This document shows, in pieces, positions 3,702 through 38,855 of a stretch of 64,000 bases of DNA. Every line of letters starts with the position of its first letter. Position 1 is the stretch's first letter. A program made the translations under genes and the position numbers. The notes under the pieces are model-generated. The model was not told the DNA's origin, ran no database searches, and saw nothing but the letters and a program-made list of their open reading frames with translations. This stretch comes from Patescibacteria group bacterium (GTDB lineage: Bacteria; Patescibacteriota; Patescibacteriia; UBA2196): contig DAIUDD010000001.1 of NCBI GenBank assembly GCA_036845805.1, forward strand, positions 628 to 64,627, given 5' to 3'.

Positions 3702-4436
3702 GTGAAAACTTCAATGGTTGGTATTGGCGCGGTGGAGCTGAAGGCCGTAGCCCAAAAATATATGCTGTGGGCCTTGGTCATTGCTTCACTCATTCATTTG
3801 TCGGTGGTCGGCGCATACTGGGGATCGATTTATCTGGCCAAAGATGAGGAGCCGGTGCGTACTGTCAGAATCATGAAATACACTGACTTGGTTCAGCCGC
3901 CTTCTATTGATCCGACCAGAAATGTGGTGGCGCCAAATGTAGCCATGGCCTCGCCCACGGCTAGGCCCAGCTTGGGAATCCCCGTGCCCGTGCCCGATGC
4001 CGAAGTGAGCCCGGATCAAACTTTTGCTAGTCAACAAGAAATGAATGTCGCCACTGGTCCAGTCACTGATGTGGCCGGATCTGGAGCAGTGCAGATAGAA
4101 AGAGATGTACAAGTTGAAAATATTACCGAAGAGGCACCGCCGCCAGATTTTGTACCGTTTGAGAAAGAACCACAGGTGATCAAACGGATAGAACCGGTTT
4201 ATCCGGAACTGGCGCGCAAAGCCGGTCTCGAAGGCATGGTCTGGGTCAAGCTCTGGGTAGACAAAGAAGGCAAAGTGAAGGATGTGGTTGTCCTGAAAAG
4301 TGCGTCAGAAATTTTCAACCAGCCAGCGATTGAGGCAGCCAAACAATGGATCTTCACGCCAGCCCTCATGAAAACCGGGCCAGTCTCGGTGTGGATCTCT
4401 CTGTCTTTCAGCTTCAAGCTGACGGCGACTAATTGA
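3702..4436 (+). CDS. TonB C-terminal domain protein (energy transducer TonB-like), GC-rich
   Basis: GTG start with aggagg RBS. N-terminal TM segment, Pro-rich linker, and C-terminus PQVIKRIEPVYPELARKAGLEGMVWVKLWVDKEGKVKDVVVLKSASEIFNQPAIEAAKQWIFTPA, the TonB_C fold signature. Confidence 0.65.
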   Translation: MKTSMVGIGAVELKAVAQKYMLWALVIASLIHLSVVGAYWGSIYLAKDEEPVRTVRIMKYTDLVQPPSIDPTRNVVAPNVAMASPTARPSLGIPVPVPDAEVSPDQTFASQQEMNVATGPVTDVAGSGAVQIERDVQVENITEEAPPPDFVPFEKEPQVIKRIEPVYPELARKAGLEGMVWVKLWVDKEGKVKDVVVLKSASEIFNQPAIEAAKQWIFTPALMKTGPVSVWISLSFSFKLTATN

Positions 4437-8747: not shown

Positions 8748-8912
8748 ATGTCTGATCTCGATCAACAACAAAATCCTATGCCTCAAGATGAAGAAGTAAA
8801 AGAAAATGAAGGCATGGAAGGTTTAGAAGATTTATCAGAAACCCCAGCCGAAGAAGAAACAGCTCCAGAAGCTGATGATATGGCTGGTGATGATATGAAT
8901 GCTGAAGTATAA
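8748..8912 (+). CDS. Small highly acidic protein (54 aa)
   Basis: MSDLDQQQNPMPQDEEVKENEGMEGLEDLSETPAEEETAPEADDMAGDDMNAEV. A consensus promoter sits upstream and a terminator hairpin downstream (8927-8958). Confidence 0.45.
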   Translation: MSDLDQQQNPMPQDEEVKENEGMEGLEDLSETPAEEETAPEADDMAGDDMNAEV

Positions 8913-9071: not shown

Positions 9072-9349
9072 TGAAAAAAAAGAAACCGGCTTTGCGATGG
9101 AGAGTGTGGCTCAGTTTGTCCTTTTTCGTTTTGGGGCTAGTTGTTCAGCTAGTCTACAAAACCGTGGAAGGACCGACACTGGGTGCCATCGCCGCACAGC
9201 AGGCTCAGAACAGCGATGTGGCTTATGCCAAATCGCACTTTTTCATCAACATGGTCACGATTCCCGGCGCCGTCTGGACTGGAATTTTTATCATCCTGGC
9301 TCTGACATGGATCACATACGCCGTGGCTTTTTATCGGACCGCGAAGTGA
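9072..9349 (+). CDS. Small membrane protein (GC-rich)
   Basis: GTG start with ggagg RBS, two TM helices, and upstream promoter ttgaca-17-taagct at 8974. The ORF-track start at 8993 is probably an upstream extension. Confidence 0.4.
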
Positions 9350-11831: not shown

Positions 11832-13079
11832 ATGTCTTTTCTCTCTACTCTCCATATTGCTTATCGTGCTATCAGATTGCACAAAGTCCGTTCGGTTTTA
11901 ACCGTACTCGGTCTTTTAATTGGCGTCATGTCTATTATTATTGTCATGAATGTCGGGCAGGGTTTAAAAGGTTTAATTTTAGATTATATAAAAATTTTTG
12001 GCTCGGATTATGTGCAAGTGGAAACAAAAGTTCCTACTACCGCTAGAAATTCAGCTGACAACGCTACTAGCATGGCCCAAGGCGTGACCGTTACCACTAT
12101 GAAAATTTCTGATGCCGAGGCGGTTGGTCGTCATCCTAATGTCAAAGGCTACTATGCTGGTCAGATGGGCCAGGCCGTGGCTTCCTATTTAGACGAGAAA
12201 AAAACCGCCATGCTTTGGGGTATTTCCAGCAGTTTTTTTACTTTATCTGAAGCCAAGGTGGAAGCGGGTCGCGAATTTAGTGATGAAGAGGATCGTTCTC
12301 AGGCACGGGTAGTTGTTTTGGGCGCCAACTTAAAAGAGAAACTTTTTGGTTCTGATGACGCTTTGGAAAAATATATAAAAATTGGTAATAAAAATTTTAA
12401 AGTTATTGGCGTTTTGGAAAAACAAGGCGGCAGCATGTTTTTTGACATGGATTCAATTGTTTTTATGCCGGTCAGAACTTTGCAAAAACAAATTATGGGT
12501 GTTGATCATATTCAATTTTTTACTGTTTATTTAAAAGATGCCAGTCAGGCCTATGCCACCGCTGCCGAGATCGAAGATATTTTAAGAGCCGAACATAAAA
12601 TTACTGATCCTAAAAAAGATGACTTTTCTGTCACCACTATGGACGAGGCCATGGGCATGTTAAATACTGTCACTGGTGGCATTTCACTTTTGCTTGTTGC
12701 TATTGCCGCTATTTCTTTAATTGTCGGTGGGGTCGGTATTATGAATATTATGTATGTTTCGGTGACTGAGCGTACTTATGAAATTGGTTTAAGAAAAGCC
12801 TTGGGCGCCACTAGCAAAAATATTTTATGGCAATTTTTATGGGAAGCGATTTTTTTAACTTTTTTAGGCGGTTTGATTGGTGTTTTTCTGGGTACGATTT
12901 TTAGTTTTCTCGGCGCCATAGCCGCTAAATCCGCCGGCTTTGATTTGGGCTTGAATTTTTCTTTAACTGGTTTTATTTTAGGCACGGTTTTTTCCGCCAC
13001 GGTCGGTTTGATTTTTGGCGTTTATCCGGCGCGCAAAGCCGCCGCTTTGGATCCGGTCGAAGCGTTGAGACAAGAATAA
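11832..13079 (+). CDS. ABC transporter permease, MacB/FtsX family (paralog)
   Basis: Same architecture, with LIVGGVGIMNIMYVSVTERTYEIGLRKALGA. ATG at 11832 preferred over the upstream TTG. Confidence 0.85.
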   Translation: MSFLSTLHIAYRAIRLHKVRSVLTVLGLLIGVMSIIIVMNVGQGLKGLILDYIKIFGSDYVQVETKVPTTARNSADNATSMAQGVTVTTMKISDAEAVGRHPNVKGYYAGQMGQAVASYLDEKKTAMLWGISSSFFTLSEAKVEAGREFSDEEDRSQARVVVLGANLKEKLFGSDDALEKYIKIGNKNFKVIGVLEKQGGSMFFDMDSIVFMPVRTLQKQIMGVDHIQFFTVYLKDASQAYATAAEIEDILRAEHKITDPKKDDFSVTTMDEAMGMLNTVTGGISLLLVAIAAISLIVGGVGIMNIMYVSVTERTYEIGLRKALGATSKNILWQFLWEAIFLTFLGGLIGVFLGTIFSFLGAIAAKSAGFDLGLNFSLTGFILGTVFSATVGLIFGVYPARKAAALDPVEALRQE

Positions 13080-13253
13080 AATGTATTATGATTTTTGTAG
13101 GGGTGGGTTTAAAACCCACCCTTTTGTTTTTATCAATATTTCAATATTTTATTTGTAGAGACAAAAAATTTTTGCCCTCCTTGCTCCATTTTTATTGAAG
13201 GCGGGGTTCCGGAACCCCGCCTTCACAACAGGACAGCTCCAGAGCCGCTCTAC

Positions 13254-13280
13254 ATTTTTTGTAACTCTGGTCTTCCCGCC
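13254..13280. repeat. Direct repeat ttttttgtaacYctggtctt, copy 1; copy 2 at 13590-13615
   Basis: tacattttttgtaactctggtcttcccgcc matches attatttttttgtaaccctggtctttaacc; the pair flanks the putative ncRNA locus. Confidence 0.5.
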
Positions 13281-13350
13281 CCGCCGTCTGGCAGGTAGAC
13301 CGGATTTTTTTAAAGCTTGACAAAAAAAACGCTTATGCTAAGATAGTTTT

Positions 13351-13548
13351 AGAAAGATTTTTAAAAAGGCACATCGTCCCAGCGGGTGTGTGCTAGTACT
13401 GCGAACAGCTGGGTATGGGACAGAGGTAGCCTTACTCTGCTCCAGAACGGCTATAAGGCTGCAGCCCGTCTAAGGTGTGCCCTTGCTGGACGGGAATAAG
13501 ATGGCGCGGCACAACGCCCAGGCGAAACATGCCTGGGCTTTTTTTATT
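13351..13548 (+). ncRNA. Candidate structured small RNA (~200 nt, GC-rich) with its own promoter and intrinsic terminator; identity unknown
   Basis: Promoter ttgaca-16-taagat at 13317-13344. Multiple internal hairpins (ggctgcagcc, gggacagagg/ctctgctcc, cgtcccagc/gctggacg). Terminator cccaggcgaaacatgcctggg plus T7 at 13516-13546. No ORF. Confidence 0.45.
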
Positions 13549-13685
13549 CTGTCATAATTATATACTTCATTTTTTTATTTTTGATTTATAATTATTTTTT
13601 TGTAACCCTGGTCTTTAACCGGAGTTTTTAAAAATAAAAAAGCCGAGGTGTGCGCCTCGGCTGTATTGCTACTAACTATGTTAGA

Positions 13686-14237
13686 TTAGAAGAGGAAATC
13701 CAACCCCACATAGCTTTTGTCTTTCATCAAGGTCCCCCAGACCTTAATTTTTTTAGAGGAAAACTCGACGCGCGGGCCAGTACGACGGCCAACGCCAACG
13801 ACCGTTTCGTTGAGGGCACCAACGCCGAGCGTTTTCCAAACTTGGCAATTGGCGATTTGGCGATGCCAGTAGCCGTTTCCGGCTTCATAGAAGCCGATGA
13901 ATGAGATCGGTCCCTTCCCCAACCAAATAAAACTCCCATAACGGTTGGGGTCGGCACCGTTTTGGATGCCGTAGGCCAGGCCCATTTGGCACCAAGATGT
14001 CGGCGCGAGCGACGGACCCGCGTAAGCCTCGGCCCAATATTGACTGATGAGGGCCCATCCCCACCAGCCAATTTTGCCAACCAGAGATCCGCCAACCGAA
14101 ATGTCGATCTGGTTGGCAACCTTGAGGTCACTTCCCGCGGGTTTGGTAAGGCCCGATTGGACCTCAACGAAATTCTGCGCGGTCGCCACTGCAACCAGCG
14201 CCAGAATCATCGCCAAAACTTCCATCATTTTTTTCAT
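13686..14237 (-). CDS. Small outer-membrane beta-barrel protein (OmpW/OmpX-like), GC-rich
   Basis: Signal peptide MKKMMEVLAMILALVAVATA-QNF. Alternating hydrophobic strands and a C-terminus YVGLDFLF with terminal Phe (BAM beta-signal). Terminator gccgaggtgtgcgcctcggc on the minus strand. 183 aa. Confidence 0.6.
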   Translation of the reverse strand: MKKMMEVLAMILALVAVATAQNFVEVQSGLTKPAGSDLKVANQIDISVGGSLVGKIGWWGWALISQYWAEAYAGPSLAPTSWCQMGLAYGIQNGADPNRYGSFIWLGKGPISFIGFYEAGNGYWHRQIANCQVWKTLGVGALNETVVGVGRRTGPRVEFSSKKIKVWGTLMKDKSYVGLDFLF

Positions 14238-17029: not shown

Positions 17030-17286
17030 ATTATAGCTAATTTTACATCTTTTTGCAAGTTTTTTATAAATTTGACAAAGTATTTTTATTGTGCTATTAT
17101 TTTTTTACAAAATTAAGAAGTTCTTTAAAAAATAGCCCAAAAACGGGTTAATTTTGTTAAATAAAAAGGAGGTTAAAGGAAAAGAAAAAAATGTTTTTCC
17201 TGCAGGAAACTACTTTTGGGTGGGGATTTTTAATTCGTGAGTTATGTTATGTAAAGAAAAAAGAAAGTTGTAAAACGGAGGTTAAG

Positions 17287-19422
17287 ATGAAAAAGTTTTT
17301 GTTGTTTTTTGCGGTTGTACTGGCGTTTGCTACTTTGTTGTTAGCAGCGCCTCCTGGTGGCAATTCCGGCGCCATTTGGACCACCCGCGGAGACTGCGGT
17401 GATGAAACCAAAGACGCCAATCACTACAAAATTGGTGATCATATTTTTCTCAATGGGCACCAGTTTGATCCCGGCGAGTATGAATGGGAAATAAAAGGCC
17501 AGCCGGGCAATGCTAGTTGCGATCACGGCGACGTCGTCGCGAGTGGTGCATTTACCATTAGCGAAGAAGACAGTGGCGGGTTTTGCTTCGAGGCATATAC
17601 TGTGGCCGAAGATGACTGCGGCGAATATCAAGTCAAATTCGGCAACAAAGGCGACAATTATCGGGTTGAATTGCCACCACCCCCGCCTAACCCTGCCATC
17701 GACATCGAAAAGCTGGTACAAGGTGAAGACGCCGACGTGCCCACCGGTCCTGTTGTGACCGTCGGTGCAACCGTCACGTTTTCATTCATCATCACCAACA
17801 TCGGCGATGTGCCTTTGACCAACATCGTGGTCACGGATAATATCTATGGCACGATCACCCTGCCCAAGACCAGCCTGGAGGCTGGCGAATCCATGACCGG
17901 TTCGACGACCGCAATGGCCGTCGCGGGCCAGCACACCAACACCGCCACGGTGACGGGCAACTACGAAGCGCAGACCGTGACGGACGCGGATCCCGCCAAC
18001 TACTGGGGCGAAACAATGATCGAGCACCATCCTGGCATCGACCTCGAGAAACTGGTACAGGGTGAGGATGCGGATACGCCCACCGGCCCGAATGTGACAG
18101 TTGGCGCCATGGTAACCTTCCAGTTCGTTGTCACCAACACCGGCGATGTGCCGTTGACCAACATTGTGGTCACGGATGATGTCTATGGTACGATAACCAT
18201 GCCAAAGAGCAGTCTGGCTGTGGGTGAATCCATGACCGGCTCGACTGCCGCGGTGGCCGTCGCAGGCCAGCACACCAATATGGCAACCGTCACTGGTAAT
18301 TATGAAACACAAACCGTGACGGATCAGGACCCAGGTAATTACTGGGGAGAGACAAAGCGGCTGCCCCTTGGGGTACACGTGGAGTGCGTGGACAAATATG
18401 TTTTCCGTGATACATATCGGGTACACTTTATTGTTAATAACGCAAACCCGTATGAAGTTCAAATTGGGCTCGGAGCATTTAACAATATTGCTCCAATTGA
18501 GTATGATGGAAAACAGCCAACATCTTTTGGGCCAGGCAAAACCGAATATTTTCTTGAGGTGCCCAATGATGTTTTAGTGAGCTGGTTTCTCGATGTTGAT
18601 TTTGCCATGGCATCAAGAAACTCGGAAATCTGCAAATACGCCGGTACCGACGATGTTGTTGTCGCCGGAATCGGTGTGTATAAAGACGTCAATACAAATG
18701 GTCTATACGATGTCGGGGAGGATTGGATAGAGGCTGATGACCGTGGATTCATGGCTGAGGTTTACATGATTAACGCTTGGACAGGCGAGGTCGTTGGTTC
18801 ACATGCATTGTCTCCGACATTGTTCTTCCGTGCTGGGCGGTATGTTAATTACAGTTTCCGCCAAAAATGGGGCGAGTTTTATATTTTGGCGAAAACTAAA
18901 ATGCCGACCCCATCAGGATATAGGCTTTATCCAAATTACCGAGTCGTGCGCACCAGCGAGTTTCCGGAGCCGTTTTACTCGCTGGAAAATGATTTCGGCC
19001 TAGTGCCGGAATCATTTGAAGGTCCGCTGGACGGCCCATACTTGCCGATGTTGGCGGAATATTTGCCAGCGAGCGCAACTTTGGCTTATCGGGCGCAGTC
19101 ACAGCAGGCTAAGGGTAAGCTGAAAACCGAAGAAGGGATTGGGATCGCGGCTTTGCCCACCGAATTCCAACTGGAGCAGAACTATCCCAACCCGTTCAAT
19201 CCGACCACTACGATCGCCTATGATCTGCCGGCAAGCGGCCAGGTGACGTTGAAGATTTACGATGTATCCGGCCGTGAGGTTGCTGCGCTGGTGAATGAAC
19301 AGCAGCCCGCCGGCCACTACTCGGTCACCTGGCGTGCCGATCACCTCGCCAGTGGCATTTATTTCTATTGCCTCCAGGCCGGGTCGTTCAGTCAGACCAA
19401 ACGTCTGGTTCTAACTAAATAA
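17287..19422 (+). CDS. Secreted protein with two DUF11/conserved-repeat domains and a T9SS C-terminal sorting domain (Por_Secre_tail), GC-rich
   Basis: Signal peptide MKKFLLFFAVVLAFATLLLA. Two tandem repeats at about 80% identity (IDIEKLVQGEDADVPTGP...TNIVVTD). C-terminus NYPNPFNPTTTIAYDLPASGQVTLKIYDVSGREVAALVNEQQPAGHYSVTWRA..ASGIYFYCLQAGSFSQTKRLVLTK matches the type-A T9SS CTD. Confidence 0.75.
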   Translation: MKKFLLFFAVVLAFATLLLAAPPGGNSGAIWTTRGDCGDETKDANHYKIGDHIFLNGHQFDPGEYEWEIKGQPGNASCDHGDVVASGAFTISEEDSGGFCFEAYTVAEDDCGEYQVKFGNKGDNYRVELPPPPPNPAIDIEKLVQGEDADVPTGPVVTVGATVTFSFIITNIGDVPLTNIVVTDNIYGTITLPKTSLEAGESMTGSTTAMAVAGQHTNTATVTGNYEAQTVTDADPANYWGETMIEHHPGIDLEKLVQGEDADTPTGPNVTVGAMVTFQFVVTNTGDVPLTNIVVTDDVYGTITMPKSSLAVGESMTGSTAAVAVAGQHTNMATVTGNYETQTVTDQDPGNYWGETKRLPLGVHVECVDKYVFRDTYRVHFIVNNANPYEVQIGLGAFNNIAPIEYDGKQPTSFGPGKTEYFLEVPNDVLVSWFLDVDFAMASRNSEICKYAGTDDVVVAGIGVYKDVNTNGLYDVGEDWIEADDRGFMAEVYMINAWTGEVVGSHALSPTLFFRAGRYVNYSFRQKWGEFYILAKTKMPTPSGYRLYPNYRVVRTSEFPEPFYSLENDFGLVPESFEGPLDGPYLPMLAEYLPASATLAYRAQSQQAKGKLKTEEGIGIAALPTEFQLEQNYPNPFNPTTTIAYDLPASGQVTLKIYDVSGREVAALVNEQQPAGHYSVTWRADHLASGIYFYCLQAGSFSQTKRLVLTK

Positions 19423-34778: not shown

Positions 34779-36464
34779 ATGAATTTATCTCAAGCAACTA
34801 AAACTCGCTATAAATTAGCAGCTATTTTTGTCTTAGCTGTTTTTTGCGCACTGGTTGTTTATCCAAAAGTTCCGGCTGGGACGCCGTTGGAGAGTTTTTG
34901 GAATAAGACTAAATTTAAGCTCGGCCTAGATTTACAAGGTGGCGCTCATTTAGTTTTTCAAGCCGATACTTCACAAATTGATGCTCGGGATCAAGCTTCG
35001 GCTGTGGCTGGCACACGCGATGTCATTGAAAAACGCGTTAATGCTTTTGGTGTATCCGAACCAGTGGTGCAAACTAATCAAGTTGGCGACAGCTATCGCG
35101 TTATTGTGGAGTTGGCTGGTGTTAAAGATGTTAAAGAAGCTATTAAATCCATTGGCGAAATGCCCCTTTTGGAATTTAAGGAATTAAATCCAGAACAAAA
35201 AACAACCTTAACCCCAGAAGAAACTAAACAATTGGAAGAATATAATAACAATGCCAAAAAGAAAGCGGAAGAAATTTTAGCCCAAACCCTAAAACCAGGT
35301 GCTGATTTTAATCAGCTTGCCATTCAATACTCCGAAGACGAAGGTTCCAAAAACAGCGGTGGTGATTTGGGTTTTGCTAAACCCGGCATGTTTGTCACCG
35401 AATTTAATGATGTTATTTTTAATAAACAAAAAAACCCTGGCATTTATCCGCAAATTGTGCAAACCCAGTTTGGTTATCATATTATTAAAAAAATCGCCAC
35501 GCGCGGGGAAGGGGAGAATCTGGAAGTTAATGCCGCGCACATTTTAATTAAAACCAAATCTGAAACCGATTATCAACAATTAGATCAATGGTTAAATACT
35601 AAGCTTTCCGGCCGTCATCTAAAACGCTCCGAAGTGCAATTTGATCAAAACTCTGGCGAACCGCAAGTTGGTTTGGAATTTAATGATGAAGGCAAGGATC
35701 TGTTTGCTGACATTACCACCAGAAATGTGGGTAAACCTGTCGCCATTTTTTTAGACGGCGAAGCCATTTCTGTGCCCAATGTTAATGAACCAATTAAAGA
35801 GGGGCGAGCTGTTATTTCTGGTCGTTTTAATATTAAAGAAGCTAAACAACTGGTTGAACGTCTCAACGCCGGCGCCTTGCCTGTGCCAATTACTTTAATT
35901 TCCCAAGAAACCGTGGGCGCTTCTTTGGGTCAAGAATCTCTCGATAAAAGTTTGTTTGCTGGTTTGATTGGCATTTTAGCCGTGGCTCTTTTTATGATTA
36001 TTTTTTATCGCTTACCTGGTTTAATGGCCGTCATCGCCTTGGCTGTTTATGCTTTGATTAACTTGGCAATTTTTCAATTATTTTCCATTACTCTAACTTT
36101 GGCTGGTATTGCTGGTTTTGTTTTATCGGTCGGCATGGCTGTTGACGCCAATGTCTTAATTTTTGAGCGCTTAAAAGAAGAACTCCGCCATGGCCGCGAA
36201 TTAACCTCGGCTATTGATGAGGGTTTTAAACGCGCTTGGACTTCTATTCGTGATTCTAATATTTCTTCTTTAATTACCTGTGTCATTTTATATTGGATTG
36301 GCTCTTCCATGGTCAAGGGTTTTGCTTTGACCTTATTTATTGGTATTGTTGTTTCTTTGTTTTCAGCCATTACCGTTACCAGAATTTTATTAAAAATTTT
36401 GGTCGGTAAAAGTTTAAAAGAAAAAAAATGGCTCTTTGGCATCCATCAACATAATACTGCCTAA
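34779..36464 (+). CDS. secD: Protein translocase subunit SecD with an inserted parvulin-type PPIase-like domain
   Basis: C-terminal SecD TM bundle (GASLGQESL...LTLAGIAGFVLSVGMAVDANVLIFERL). The periplasmic segment DFNQLAIQYSEDEGSKNSGGDLGFAKPGMFVTEFNDVIFN...QFGYHIIKK resembles a PpiC/PrsA rotamase domain. Confidence 0.8.
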   Translation: MNLSQATKTRYKLAAIFVLAVFCALVVYPKVPAGTPLESFWNKTKFKLGLDLQGGAHLVFQADTSQIDARDQASAVAGTRDVIEKRVNAFGVSEPVVQTNQVGDSYRVIVELAGVKDVKEAIKSIGEMPLLEFKELNPEQKTTLTPEETKQLEEYNNNAKKKAEEILAQTLKPGADFNQLAIQYSEDEGSKNSGGDLGFAKPGMFVTEFNDVIFNKQKNPGIYPQIVQTQFGYHIIKKIATRGEGENLEVNAAHILIKTKSETDYQQLDQWLNTKLSGRHLKRSEVQFDQNSGEPQVGLEFNDEGKDLFADITTRNVGKPVAIFLDGEAISVPNVNEPIKEGRAVISGRFNIKEAKQLVERLNAGALPVPITLISQETVGASLGQESLDKSLFAGLIGILAVALFMIIFYRLPGLMAVIALAVYALINLAIFQLFSITLTLAGIAGFVLSVGMAVDANVLIFERLKEELRHGRELTSAIDEGFKRAWTSIRDSNISSLITCVILYWIGSSMVKGFALTLFIGIVVSLFSAITVTRILLKILVGKSLKEKKWLFGIHQHNTA

Positions 36465-37617: not shown

Positions 37618-38754
37618 ATGACAGATCAAATACTCGATAATTTAATAAATTTTAGCCAAAATCAGGCAAAAAATCAGTTTTCTGCTCCAGAAATAGTTGA
37701 TTCTATTTTGGCCTTAATTAGTGACCGTGAGGCCAGTATTTTGCGTCAGCGCTATGGTTTAAATAATCAAAAAACACGTACTCTCGAAGCAATTGGTCAA
37801 AGTTTAAATTTAACTCGGGAGCGGGTTCGCCAAATAGAAAATCAGGCTGTCAAAAATATCTTAAAAAATAAGCGCTACGAAGAAATAGTCGCCCCTTTTC
37901 AGCGTTTAATTTTTTCTCTGGTTGCCGAACACGGCGGCTTAATGTCCGAAGATTGTTTAATTTCTAAATTAAAAGAAATGTCTATTGGCCAGCCAGACGT
38001 AGTGCCCTTTCTTAAATTTTTGTTAGCCAACTTTGTTACCGGTTTAGAACGTTTAGAGCAAGGTAATTTTAAGCCTGGTTGGCGTTCTTTAGATTTAACT
38101 TTGGAATGGGTGCAAAATATCCTTAATACTTTTGAAAAAATTTTAAACGAAAAAAATCAAATTATGGCGCACAGTGAATTAATGGATGCTTTTAAACAAA
38201 GTGAATTTTATCAAAGTGAACAAAATCACTGGCAAGAATTATTAGCAGCTAATAATCGTAATTTAGAGCAAGTAATCAATTCCTACCTTCTAGCTAGTCC
38301 CAAGTTTGCTCAAACCCCCTTTAATCAGTGGGGCCTGACCAGCTGGGGCAGTGCTTCTCCCCGTCGGATTAATGGTAAAATTTATTTATTGATGCTCCAT
38401 AAAAAACAACCGATGCATTTTACCGAAATTGCTGATTTGATTAATAAACACTGGAGTGATGAACGCCAAGTTAAAACCGCCACCGTGCACAATGAATTAA
38501 TTTTTGATCCGCGTTTTGTTTTAATTGGCCGTGGTCTTTATGGCTTGAAAGATTGGGGTTATCAAGAAGGTAATGTAGCGGATATTGTAATTGAAGTCTT
38601 AAAAAATAGCACGACCCCATTAAGTGAAGCTGAAATAATTAAGCAAGTAAAAGATAAAAAACAGGTTAAGGAAGCCACTATTAGATTAGTTTTAAAGAAT
38701 AAAGATAAATTTGAAAAATCCGCAGATAATACTTATCATTTAAAAGCCAGTTAA
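37618..38754 (+). CDS. DNA-binding protein: sigma-70 region-4-like HTH plus two C-terminal HARE-HTH-like winged helices
   Basis: ILRQRYGLNNQKTRTLEAIGQSLNLTRERVRQIENQAVKNI is sigma region 4. C-terminal MHFTEIADLINKH...GRGLYGLKDWGY and IVIEVLKNSTTPLSEAEII...YHLK are HARE-HTH-like. Confidence 0.45.
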   Translation: MTDQILDNLINFSQNQAKNQFSAPEIVDSILALISDREASILRQRYGLNNQKTRTLEAIGQSLNLTRERVRQIENQAVKNILKNKRYEEIVAPFQRLIFSLVAEHGGLMSEDCLISKLKEMSIGQPDVVPFLKFLLANFVTGLERLEQGNFKPGWRSLDLTLEWVQNILNTFEKILNEKNQIMAHSELMDAFKQSEFYQSEQNHWQELLAANNRNLEQVINSYLLASPKFAQTPFNQWGLTSWGSASPRRINGKIYLLMLHKKQPMHFTEIADLINKHWSDERQVKTATVHNELIFDPRFVLIGRGLYGLKDWGYQEGNVADIVIEVLKNSTTPLSEAEIIKQVKDKKQVKEATIRLVLKNKDKFEKSADNTYHLKAS

Positions 38755-38855
38755 TTAACATGGCTGCCGAGCAATCGGTGTCTTTTCTATTTAATATTTT
38801 TGAAGGCGAGGTTCCAGAACCTCGCCTTCATTGTTTATTAGCCATCTATTCTTAA

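Follow-up and report, generated by a model that had tools for sequence, protein, structure and literature searches.

Does a 606-bp gap between two convergent genes of a Patescibacteria genome (positions 13080-13685) contain a gene for a small RNA, and if so, for which one? Patescibacteria (CPR) are an uncultivated lineage with reduced genomes, and to our knowledge, very little is known about their regulatory RNAs. The window, i.e., the whole stretch of DNA that was analyzed, is 64,000 nt long and comes from an organism of anaerobic digesters. Within the gap, the original prediction described a unit running from promoter to terminator and specifying a structured RNA, with direct repeats on either side, and suggested 6S RNA or another global small RNA.

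Genomic context

The window has a GC content of 37%, and its closest database relatives are metagenome-assembled genomes labeled as Patescibacteria/CPR (Kuenenbacteria, Falkowbacteria, Buchananbacteria, and others). Of two MacB/FtsX-type ABC permease genes, the second lies directly upstream of the candidate unit. On the other side lies a convergent gene for a 183-aa orphan protein, and beyond it are ABC ATPase and HlyD-type adaptor genes that belong to the same transporter system as the permeases. The positions of all features are given in Table 1.

Table 1. Features of the intergenic region and its flanking genes, numbered along the window.
Feature	Position	Strand	Details
FtsX/MacB permease gene	11832-13079	+	Upstream neighbor; Pfam MacB_PCD and FtsX
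Intrinsic terminator of the permease gene	13099-13133	+	11-pair stem, then T-rich tail
Perfect 15+15 palindrome, TGAAGGCGGGGTTCC/GGAACCCCGCCTTCA, without T-run	13196-13225	.	Arms 100% complementary; local hairpin family
Repeat module 1: DR1, hairpin 13266-13304, U7	13255-13311	+	Direct repeat family D4; terminator-like
Sigma-70-type extended -10 promoter	13317-13344	+	TTGACA, 16-nt spacer with TG, TAAGAT
Predicted non-coding transcript, ~190 nt	13351-13545	+	No ORF, 57% GC; expression predicted
Hairpin 1, GUCCCA...UGGGAC with inner stem	13376-13421	+	-18.7 kcal/mol, z = -1.66
Hairpin 3, CCGUCUAAGG...CCUU..GGACGG	13466-13493	+	-11.2 kcal/mol, z = -2.0; in MFE and centroid
Intrinsic terminator of the unit, GCCCAGGC / GCCUGGGC stem, then U7	13516-13545	+	9 pairs, 7 G-C
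Repeat module 2: DR2, weak 5-bp hairpin CUGGU/ACCGG, U5	13596-13628	+	Gapped alignment to module 1
Terminator of the convergent 183-aa gene	13641-13662	-	Terminator listing
Convergent 183-aa orphan protein gene	13686-14237	-	Translation; context, no part of the RNA

The 183-aa protein has no Pfam domain, and among 5.8 billion proteins searched, only P0002 (182 aa, 41% identity) was found as a distinct homologue, besides the protein's own entry. The promoter of its gene is at 14401-14374. The protein has an N-terminal hydrophobic stretch resembling a signal peptide, and its C-terminus, ...GLDFLF, is reminiscent of an outer-membrane beta-barrel signal. The gene has a GC content of 54%, versus 37% for the window, and is missing from several close relatives. 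Two further GC-rich genes (51-52%) encode a TonB C-terminal domain protein (3702-4436) and a DUF11/DUF7507 protein with a Por_Secre_tail (type IX secretion sorting) domain (17191-19422). TonB C-terminal and Por_Secre_tail domains are found in the outer-membrane systems of diderm bacteria; because they are typical of such systems, their presence in a Patescibacteria genome is unexpected.

The perfect palindrome in the gap belongs to a family of hairpins, TGAAGGCG[G/A]GGTTCC..., with near-identical copies at 13196-13225, 38797-38830, and about 59308. The 38797-38830 copy is 88% identical, and follows the gene at 37618-38754 as a terminator; a G>A change in one of its arms is compensated by C>T in the other.

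A promoter-to-terminator unit

A near-consensus promoter had been predicted to drive the RNA, and it is present on the plus strand. The -35 hexamer (TTGACA, 13317-13322) and the -10 hexamer (TAAGAT, 13339-13344) together match the consensus at 10 of 12 positions, and the spacer ends in TGc, with the TG of an extended -10 element at 13336-13337. The window contains 14 matches to TTGACA-N12-16-TGnTAnnnT, versus 0.20 expected from dinucleotide-preserving shuffles. By our comparison of the site positions with the ORF list and sequence, 10 of the 13 other sites immediately precede genes, among them rpmA, the 183-aa gene, and several small ORFs. Of the 14, only the site at 13317 is intergenic and has no ORF following it. 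Sites of this class include those at 2642, 8688, 8974, 14401, 17072, 43099, 46725, 55482, and 59738.

Small ORFs at 8749-8912 (+), 9072-9349 (+), 43040-42844 (-), and about 59678-59390 (-) each have their own consensus promoter. Those behind consensus promoters include genes for an acidic 54-aa protein and for small hydrophobic, GC-rich proteins, and they are too short for the main ORF listing, which has a cut-off of 120 aa.

The claim of a textbook terminator also holds: the stem spans 13516-13538 and is followed directly by seven T residues. With the start placed ~7 nt past the -10 hexamer and the end at the terminator U-run, the predicted transcript is close to the ~200 nt first proposed, and it is GC-rich as described. 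The GC content of 13366-13545, 57%, compares with 52-56% for the five tRNAs in the window and is ~2 sd over the window mean. High GC content also occurs outside RNA genes, as in three secreted or surface-type protein genes in the window (51-54%). Two other GC-rich peaks, at 9151 and 59401, were considered as sister RNAs and rejected, both being small protein genes. The minus strand of the unit has no terminator and folds more weakly. Downstream of the terminator, 140 nt of AT-rich sequence with no ORF extend to the terminator of the convergent gene.

These motifs support the prediction of a promoter-to-terminator non-coding transcription unit, because they are demonstrably used at real genes in the same genome. 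We are fairly confident that the unit, judged by its sequence motifs, would give rise to a discrete transcript, and much less confident that the resulting RNA, whose stability is likewise a prediction, has a function. Our preferred reading, to which we assign a probability of roughly 45%, is that the unit would be a gene for a species-restricted, independently transcribed small non-coding RNA (sRNA) of a class unmatched in Rfam. The unit has the features by which sRNA genes are recognized, i.e., its own promoter and Rho-independent terminator, an intergenic location, and non-coding sequence. Like trans-encoded sRNAs, the candidate lies between convergent genes with a near-consensus promoter and a strong intrinsic terminator of its own, is ~190 nt long with several hairpins and no ORF, and has a narrow lineage. 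Unlike them, it is known from sequence alone, lacks conservation in its nearest relatives, and resembles curated sRNA families only in its terminator.

Predicted RNA structure

Folding of the full transcript gives an MFE of -71.3 kcal/mol, compared with -64.3 ± 4.1 kcal/mol for shuffled sequences (z = -1.69), and 12 of 200 shuffles are equally stable. There are 736 suboptimal structures within 2 kcal/mol, and the ensemble frequency of the MFE structure is 0.001. The overall fold, as modeled, is diffuse and ill-defined, with no convincing margin over shuffles. Besides the terminator, the MFE, MEA, and centroid structures each contain three or four hairpins that stand apart from one another. Apart from the terminator, only hairpins 1 and 3 are internal elements that recur in both the MFE and the centroid, and hairpin 1 is missing from the MFE of a 135-nt subfragment.

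The original prediction also included a long-range helix of 9 bp closing the structure. Pairing between CGTCCCAGC (13375-13383) and GCTGGACG (13485-13492) is indeed possible, but it comprises only 8 pairs, with one bulged C. None of the three predicted structures (MFE, MEA, or centroid) contains this helix, since local hairpins that need the same bases outcompete it.

Comparison with related genomes

Several metagenome samples yielded a total of 10 contigs of this species, and the intergenic region is 100% identical in all of them. These contigs are ≥99.9% identical overall across 2-6.5 kb; they are clonal, and the invariance of the region therefore gives no signal of selection. Samples in which the organism occurs include JGI 3300025871, 3300009782, 3300009783, and 3300025882 and ENA ERZ795056.

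For a broader comparison, we used 80 genome loci around FtsX homologues, plus the encoding contigs of five FtsX relatives and of P0002. The original prediction had looked to conservation and covariation in relatives; neither nhmmer nor BLAST found a homologue of the unit in the 80 related loci, and a covariance model built from the single sequence and its MFE structure found only itself in 757 kb of CPR DNA. The unit is missing at the syntenic site in four relatives with FtsX identities of 79-82% (L011, L092, L094, and L095). In the relative with the most similar FtsX (L097, 87%), the 220 bp available downstream have nothing in common with the intergenic region. The permease-ATPase gap is 6 bp in L092 and L098 (FtsX identities of 80-82%), 38 bp in L095 (79%), and 346 bp, without similarity, in L011 (79%). 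The only part of the intergenic region that is recognizably conserved in a relative is the terminator of the 183-aa gene, with a 32-nt match of 90.6% identity in L094 (FtsX identity of 82%). There, this terminator lies ~100 bp past the FtsX stop codon, and ~460 bp including the unit are therefore extra DNA in the window. Judging from these alignments, some insertion or rearrangement did happen at the site.

The extra DNA, together with the dissimilar gaps of other relatives, bears on the main rival to an sRNA gene, a possible but rather unlikely one: the unit may be a transcribed relic of that insertion or rearrangement, such as an orphaned riboswitch- or attenuator-like leader or decayed foreign DNA, and its RNA would then have no function of its own. 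The diffuse fold and the lack of conservation in related loci are consistent with a relic. So is the layout of the unit, since an OFF-type riboswitch leader likewise combines a promoter and an intrinsic terminator with ~150 nt of foldable, GC-rich RNA in between, and the short segments CCCAG, CUGGG, and CUGGAC allow alternative pairing of the kind that riboswitch and attenuator leaders use. However, GC-rich sequence can be expected to offer alternative pairings of 5-6 nt by chance, the known aptamer classes give no match at E<=10, and, unlike such leaders, the unit has no downstream gene on the same strand, the 140 nt up to the convergent terminator containing no ORF. The promoter and terminator, moreover, are near-consensus and show no decay.

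Searches beyond the related loci bear on the distribution of the candidate sRNA. A metagenome scan with a pattern of three helix blocks gave 32 matches. The matched contigs have 54-75% GC, and nhmmer detected no similarity in any of them; because of the GC-richness of these contigs and the lack of nhmmer similarity, we judge the matches to be due to chance. An exact pattern from the window did not retrieve the species' own JGI contigs, which are present in the encoding-contig index. The metagenome collection evidently does not include these contigs, and the scan is therefore weakly informative. Scanning viral contigs with four patterns and comparing the unit with phages and plasmids by BLAST yielded nothing or chance matches; the single viral match falls within coding sequence.

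The homologue of the 183-aa protein, P0002, has a promoter-like site of its own beside it (TTGACA...TATTATATT; L091:1000-1330). Downstream of the site come ~230 nt of GC-rich sequence that include a long closing helix (GGGTGGGTGATTT/AAATCACCCACCC), then a terminator, and finally a second promoter for the gene. The GC-rich stretch matches no Rfam family and does not resemble the RNA in the window.

The flanking direct repeats

The unit had been described as bracketed by direct repeats of 22 bp. The repeats exist, but they are 20 nt long and lie a few bases from the positions first noted, at 13255-13274 (DR1) and 13596-13615 (DR2). The two copies are identical at 19 of 20 positions, whereas 0.08 such matches are expected by chance, and the only further match in the window (35335-35353) has 3 mismatches.

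In a gapped alignment, the similarity between the copies resumes past a 22-nt indel as ACCGGA[T/G]TTTTT, and each copy is therefore part of a module consisting of a hairpin and a T-run on the plus strand. The hairpin of module 1 is stable (-18.9 kcal/mol, z = -2.78) and ends six bases short of the -35 hexamer. The hairpin of module 2 is weak (-6.3 kcal/mol, z = -0.73); it is listed as terminator-like at 13608-13622, and the module is located between the unit's terminator and that of the convergent gene. The direct repeats thus look like the 5' halves of two related, terminator-like modules rather than a clean target-site duplication. Since the repeat copies are imperfect and extend, with an indel, into hairpins and T-runs, we prefer two related stop signals that would insulate the unit at either end to the target-site duplication or att site initially suggested.

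It is improbable that the unit is a miniature integrated cassette, brought in by site-specific recombination or transposition, with the 20-nt repeats as attL/attR or a target duplication. Such a cassette would account for the fact that the repeats bracket the promoter, RNA, and terminator exactly, with a similarity far beyond chance, and that the unit is extra DNA relative to the genomes compared. In this, the candidate resembles MITE-like elements and integrase-borne cassettes with att sites or target-site duplications, in which direct repeats would enclose a segment that relatives lack, here of ~320 bp. Yet the imperfect repeats continue across the indel into larger modules, which have a functional look and not that of a duplication scar. 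No terminal inverted repeats are seen by eye inside the direct repeats, and no recombinase, integrase, transposase, or reverse-transcriptase domain was detected in the 15 neighboring proteins scanned (831-25262). Nor is there a second copy of the unit in the window, the related loci, or the viral contigs. Finally, an empty site retaining one copy of the repeat, as part of a single TTTTTTGTAACYCTGGTCTT...ACCGGA module, is seen in none of the relatives; those examined that lack the unit also lack any copy of the repeat.

Comparison with known RNA families

No Rfam family reaches its gathering threshold in the region of the unit when the whole window is searched. The Rfam search recommended in the original prediction was repeated with a cut-off of E<=10 for a 701-nt stretch and for the isolated 204 nt, with no match to the 6S, SRP, RNase P, tmRNA, or riboswitch models. 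Unrelated sRNA families were the only ones matched by the isolated 204 nt at this cut-off, with seven weak hits (11-15 bits), all on the plus strand. Each of the seven ends at 13544-13547, at the terminator U-run, and the three alignments examined owe their match mainly to the terminator hairpin. ARAGORN found no tmRNA and only five tRNAs in the window. A match to SprD at 13101-13221 (35.7 bits versus a gathering score of 100) was rejected, as it consists of two terminator-type hairpins upstream of the unit. We found nothing relevant in the literature on small RNAs or 6S RNA of CPR bacteria.

The suggestion of 6S RNA or another global small RNA is therefore not borne out by these family searches. 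The candidate and 6S RNA (RF00013) have a similar length and are both independent transcription units. They differ in structure, the rod of 6S RNA with its closing stem, central bubble, and terminal stem-loop being missing from the string of hairpins predicted for the candidate, and in that the candidate has neither a covariance-model match at E<=10 nor a homologue in related loci. That the unit encodes a highly divergent housekeeping RNA (6S or similar), beyond the reach of Rfam models in this phylum, is less probable still than an integrated cassette. 6S RNAs are poorly conserved in sequence, which counts in favor of such an RNA, as do the length of ~190 nt, the strong promoter of its own, and the tRNA-like GC content. 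However, the isolated sequence gives no 6S match at E<=10, and the predicted hairpins are separate, with no long closing stem joining the 5' and 3' ends around a central bubble. A housekeeping RNA should also be detectable at 80-87% protein identity, yet nothing was found in the available loci of relatives, either at the syntenic sites that could be checked or elsewhere in the 757 kb.

A more speculative version of a small RNA gene, about as improbable as the integrated cassette, is that the unit represents a novel structured or regulatory RNA class of Patescibacteria. It might travel on a tiny cassette whose integration site would be a terminator-like hairpin, i.e., the repeat modules. Such a class would be invisible to Rfam, because the non-coding RNAs of CPR bacteria are almost unexplored.

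Coding potential

The absence of an ORF from the unit, claimed at the outset, is confirmed: all six frames are broken by stop codons, there is no credible ORF on either strand, and no small ORF led by an SD sequence lies inside the predicted transcript. We reject as very improbable a very small protein gene with no recognizable ribosome-binding site, even though several small ORFs in this genome lie behind the same promoter class and at least one of them (8749-8912) has no obvious SD sequence, because the ATG-started frames of the unit are only 4, 18, and 20 codons long, the two longer ones crossing the terminator hairpin, and the longest frames (37-38 codons) start with GTG and have no SD sequence.

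Possible mechanism and implications

A species-restricted sRNA gene suggests the following scheme. RNA polymerase would initiate near 13351 from the extended -10, sigma-70-type promoter and halt at the intrinsic terminator, releasing the ~190-nt, GC-rich RNA. The RNA would fold as three or four local hairpins and not as one rod, and would most likely be a trans-acting regulator that works by base-pairing or by binding a protein. The best duplex between the candidate and the 50 start regions of the 64-kb window scores -43.9 and does not exceed what shuffles give, which have a mean of -39.8, an sd of 5.4, and a minimum of -54.1. Module 1, upstream of the promoter, may block read-through from the permease operon, and module 2, downstream of the RNA's own terminator, may be a back-up stop ahead of the convergent gene.

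The practical result for known families is negative: the unit is not a 6S, SRP, RNase P, or tmRNA gene, and its att-like repeats are more simply explained by paired terminator-like modules. A candidate from a single species is a lead and not a discovery. The extended -10 promoter class can be used to map transcription units of this CPR genome, and a verified stand-alone sRNA in Patescibacteria would make a useful first example.
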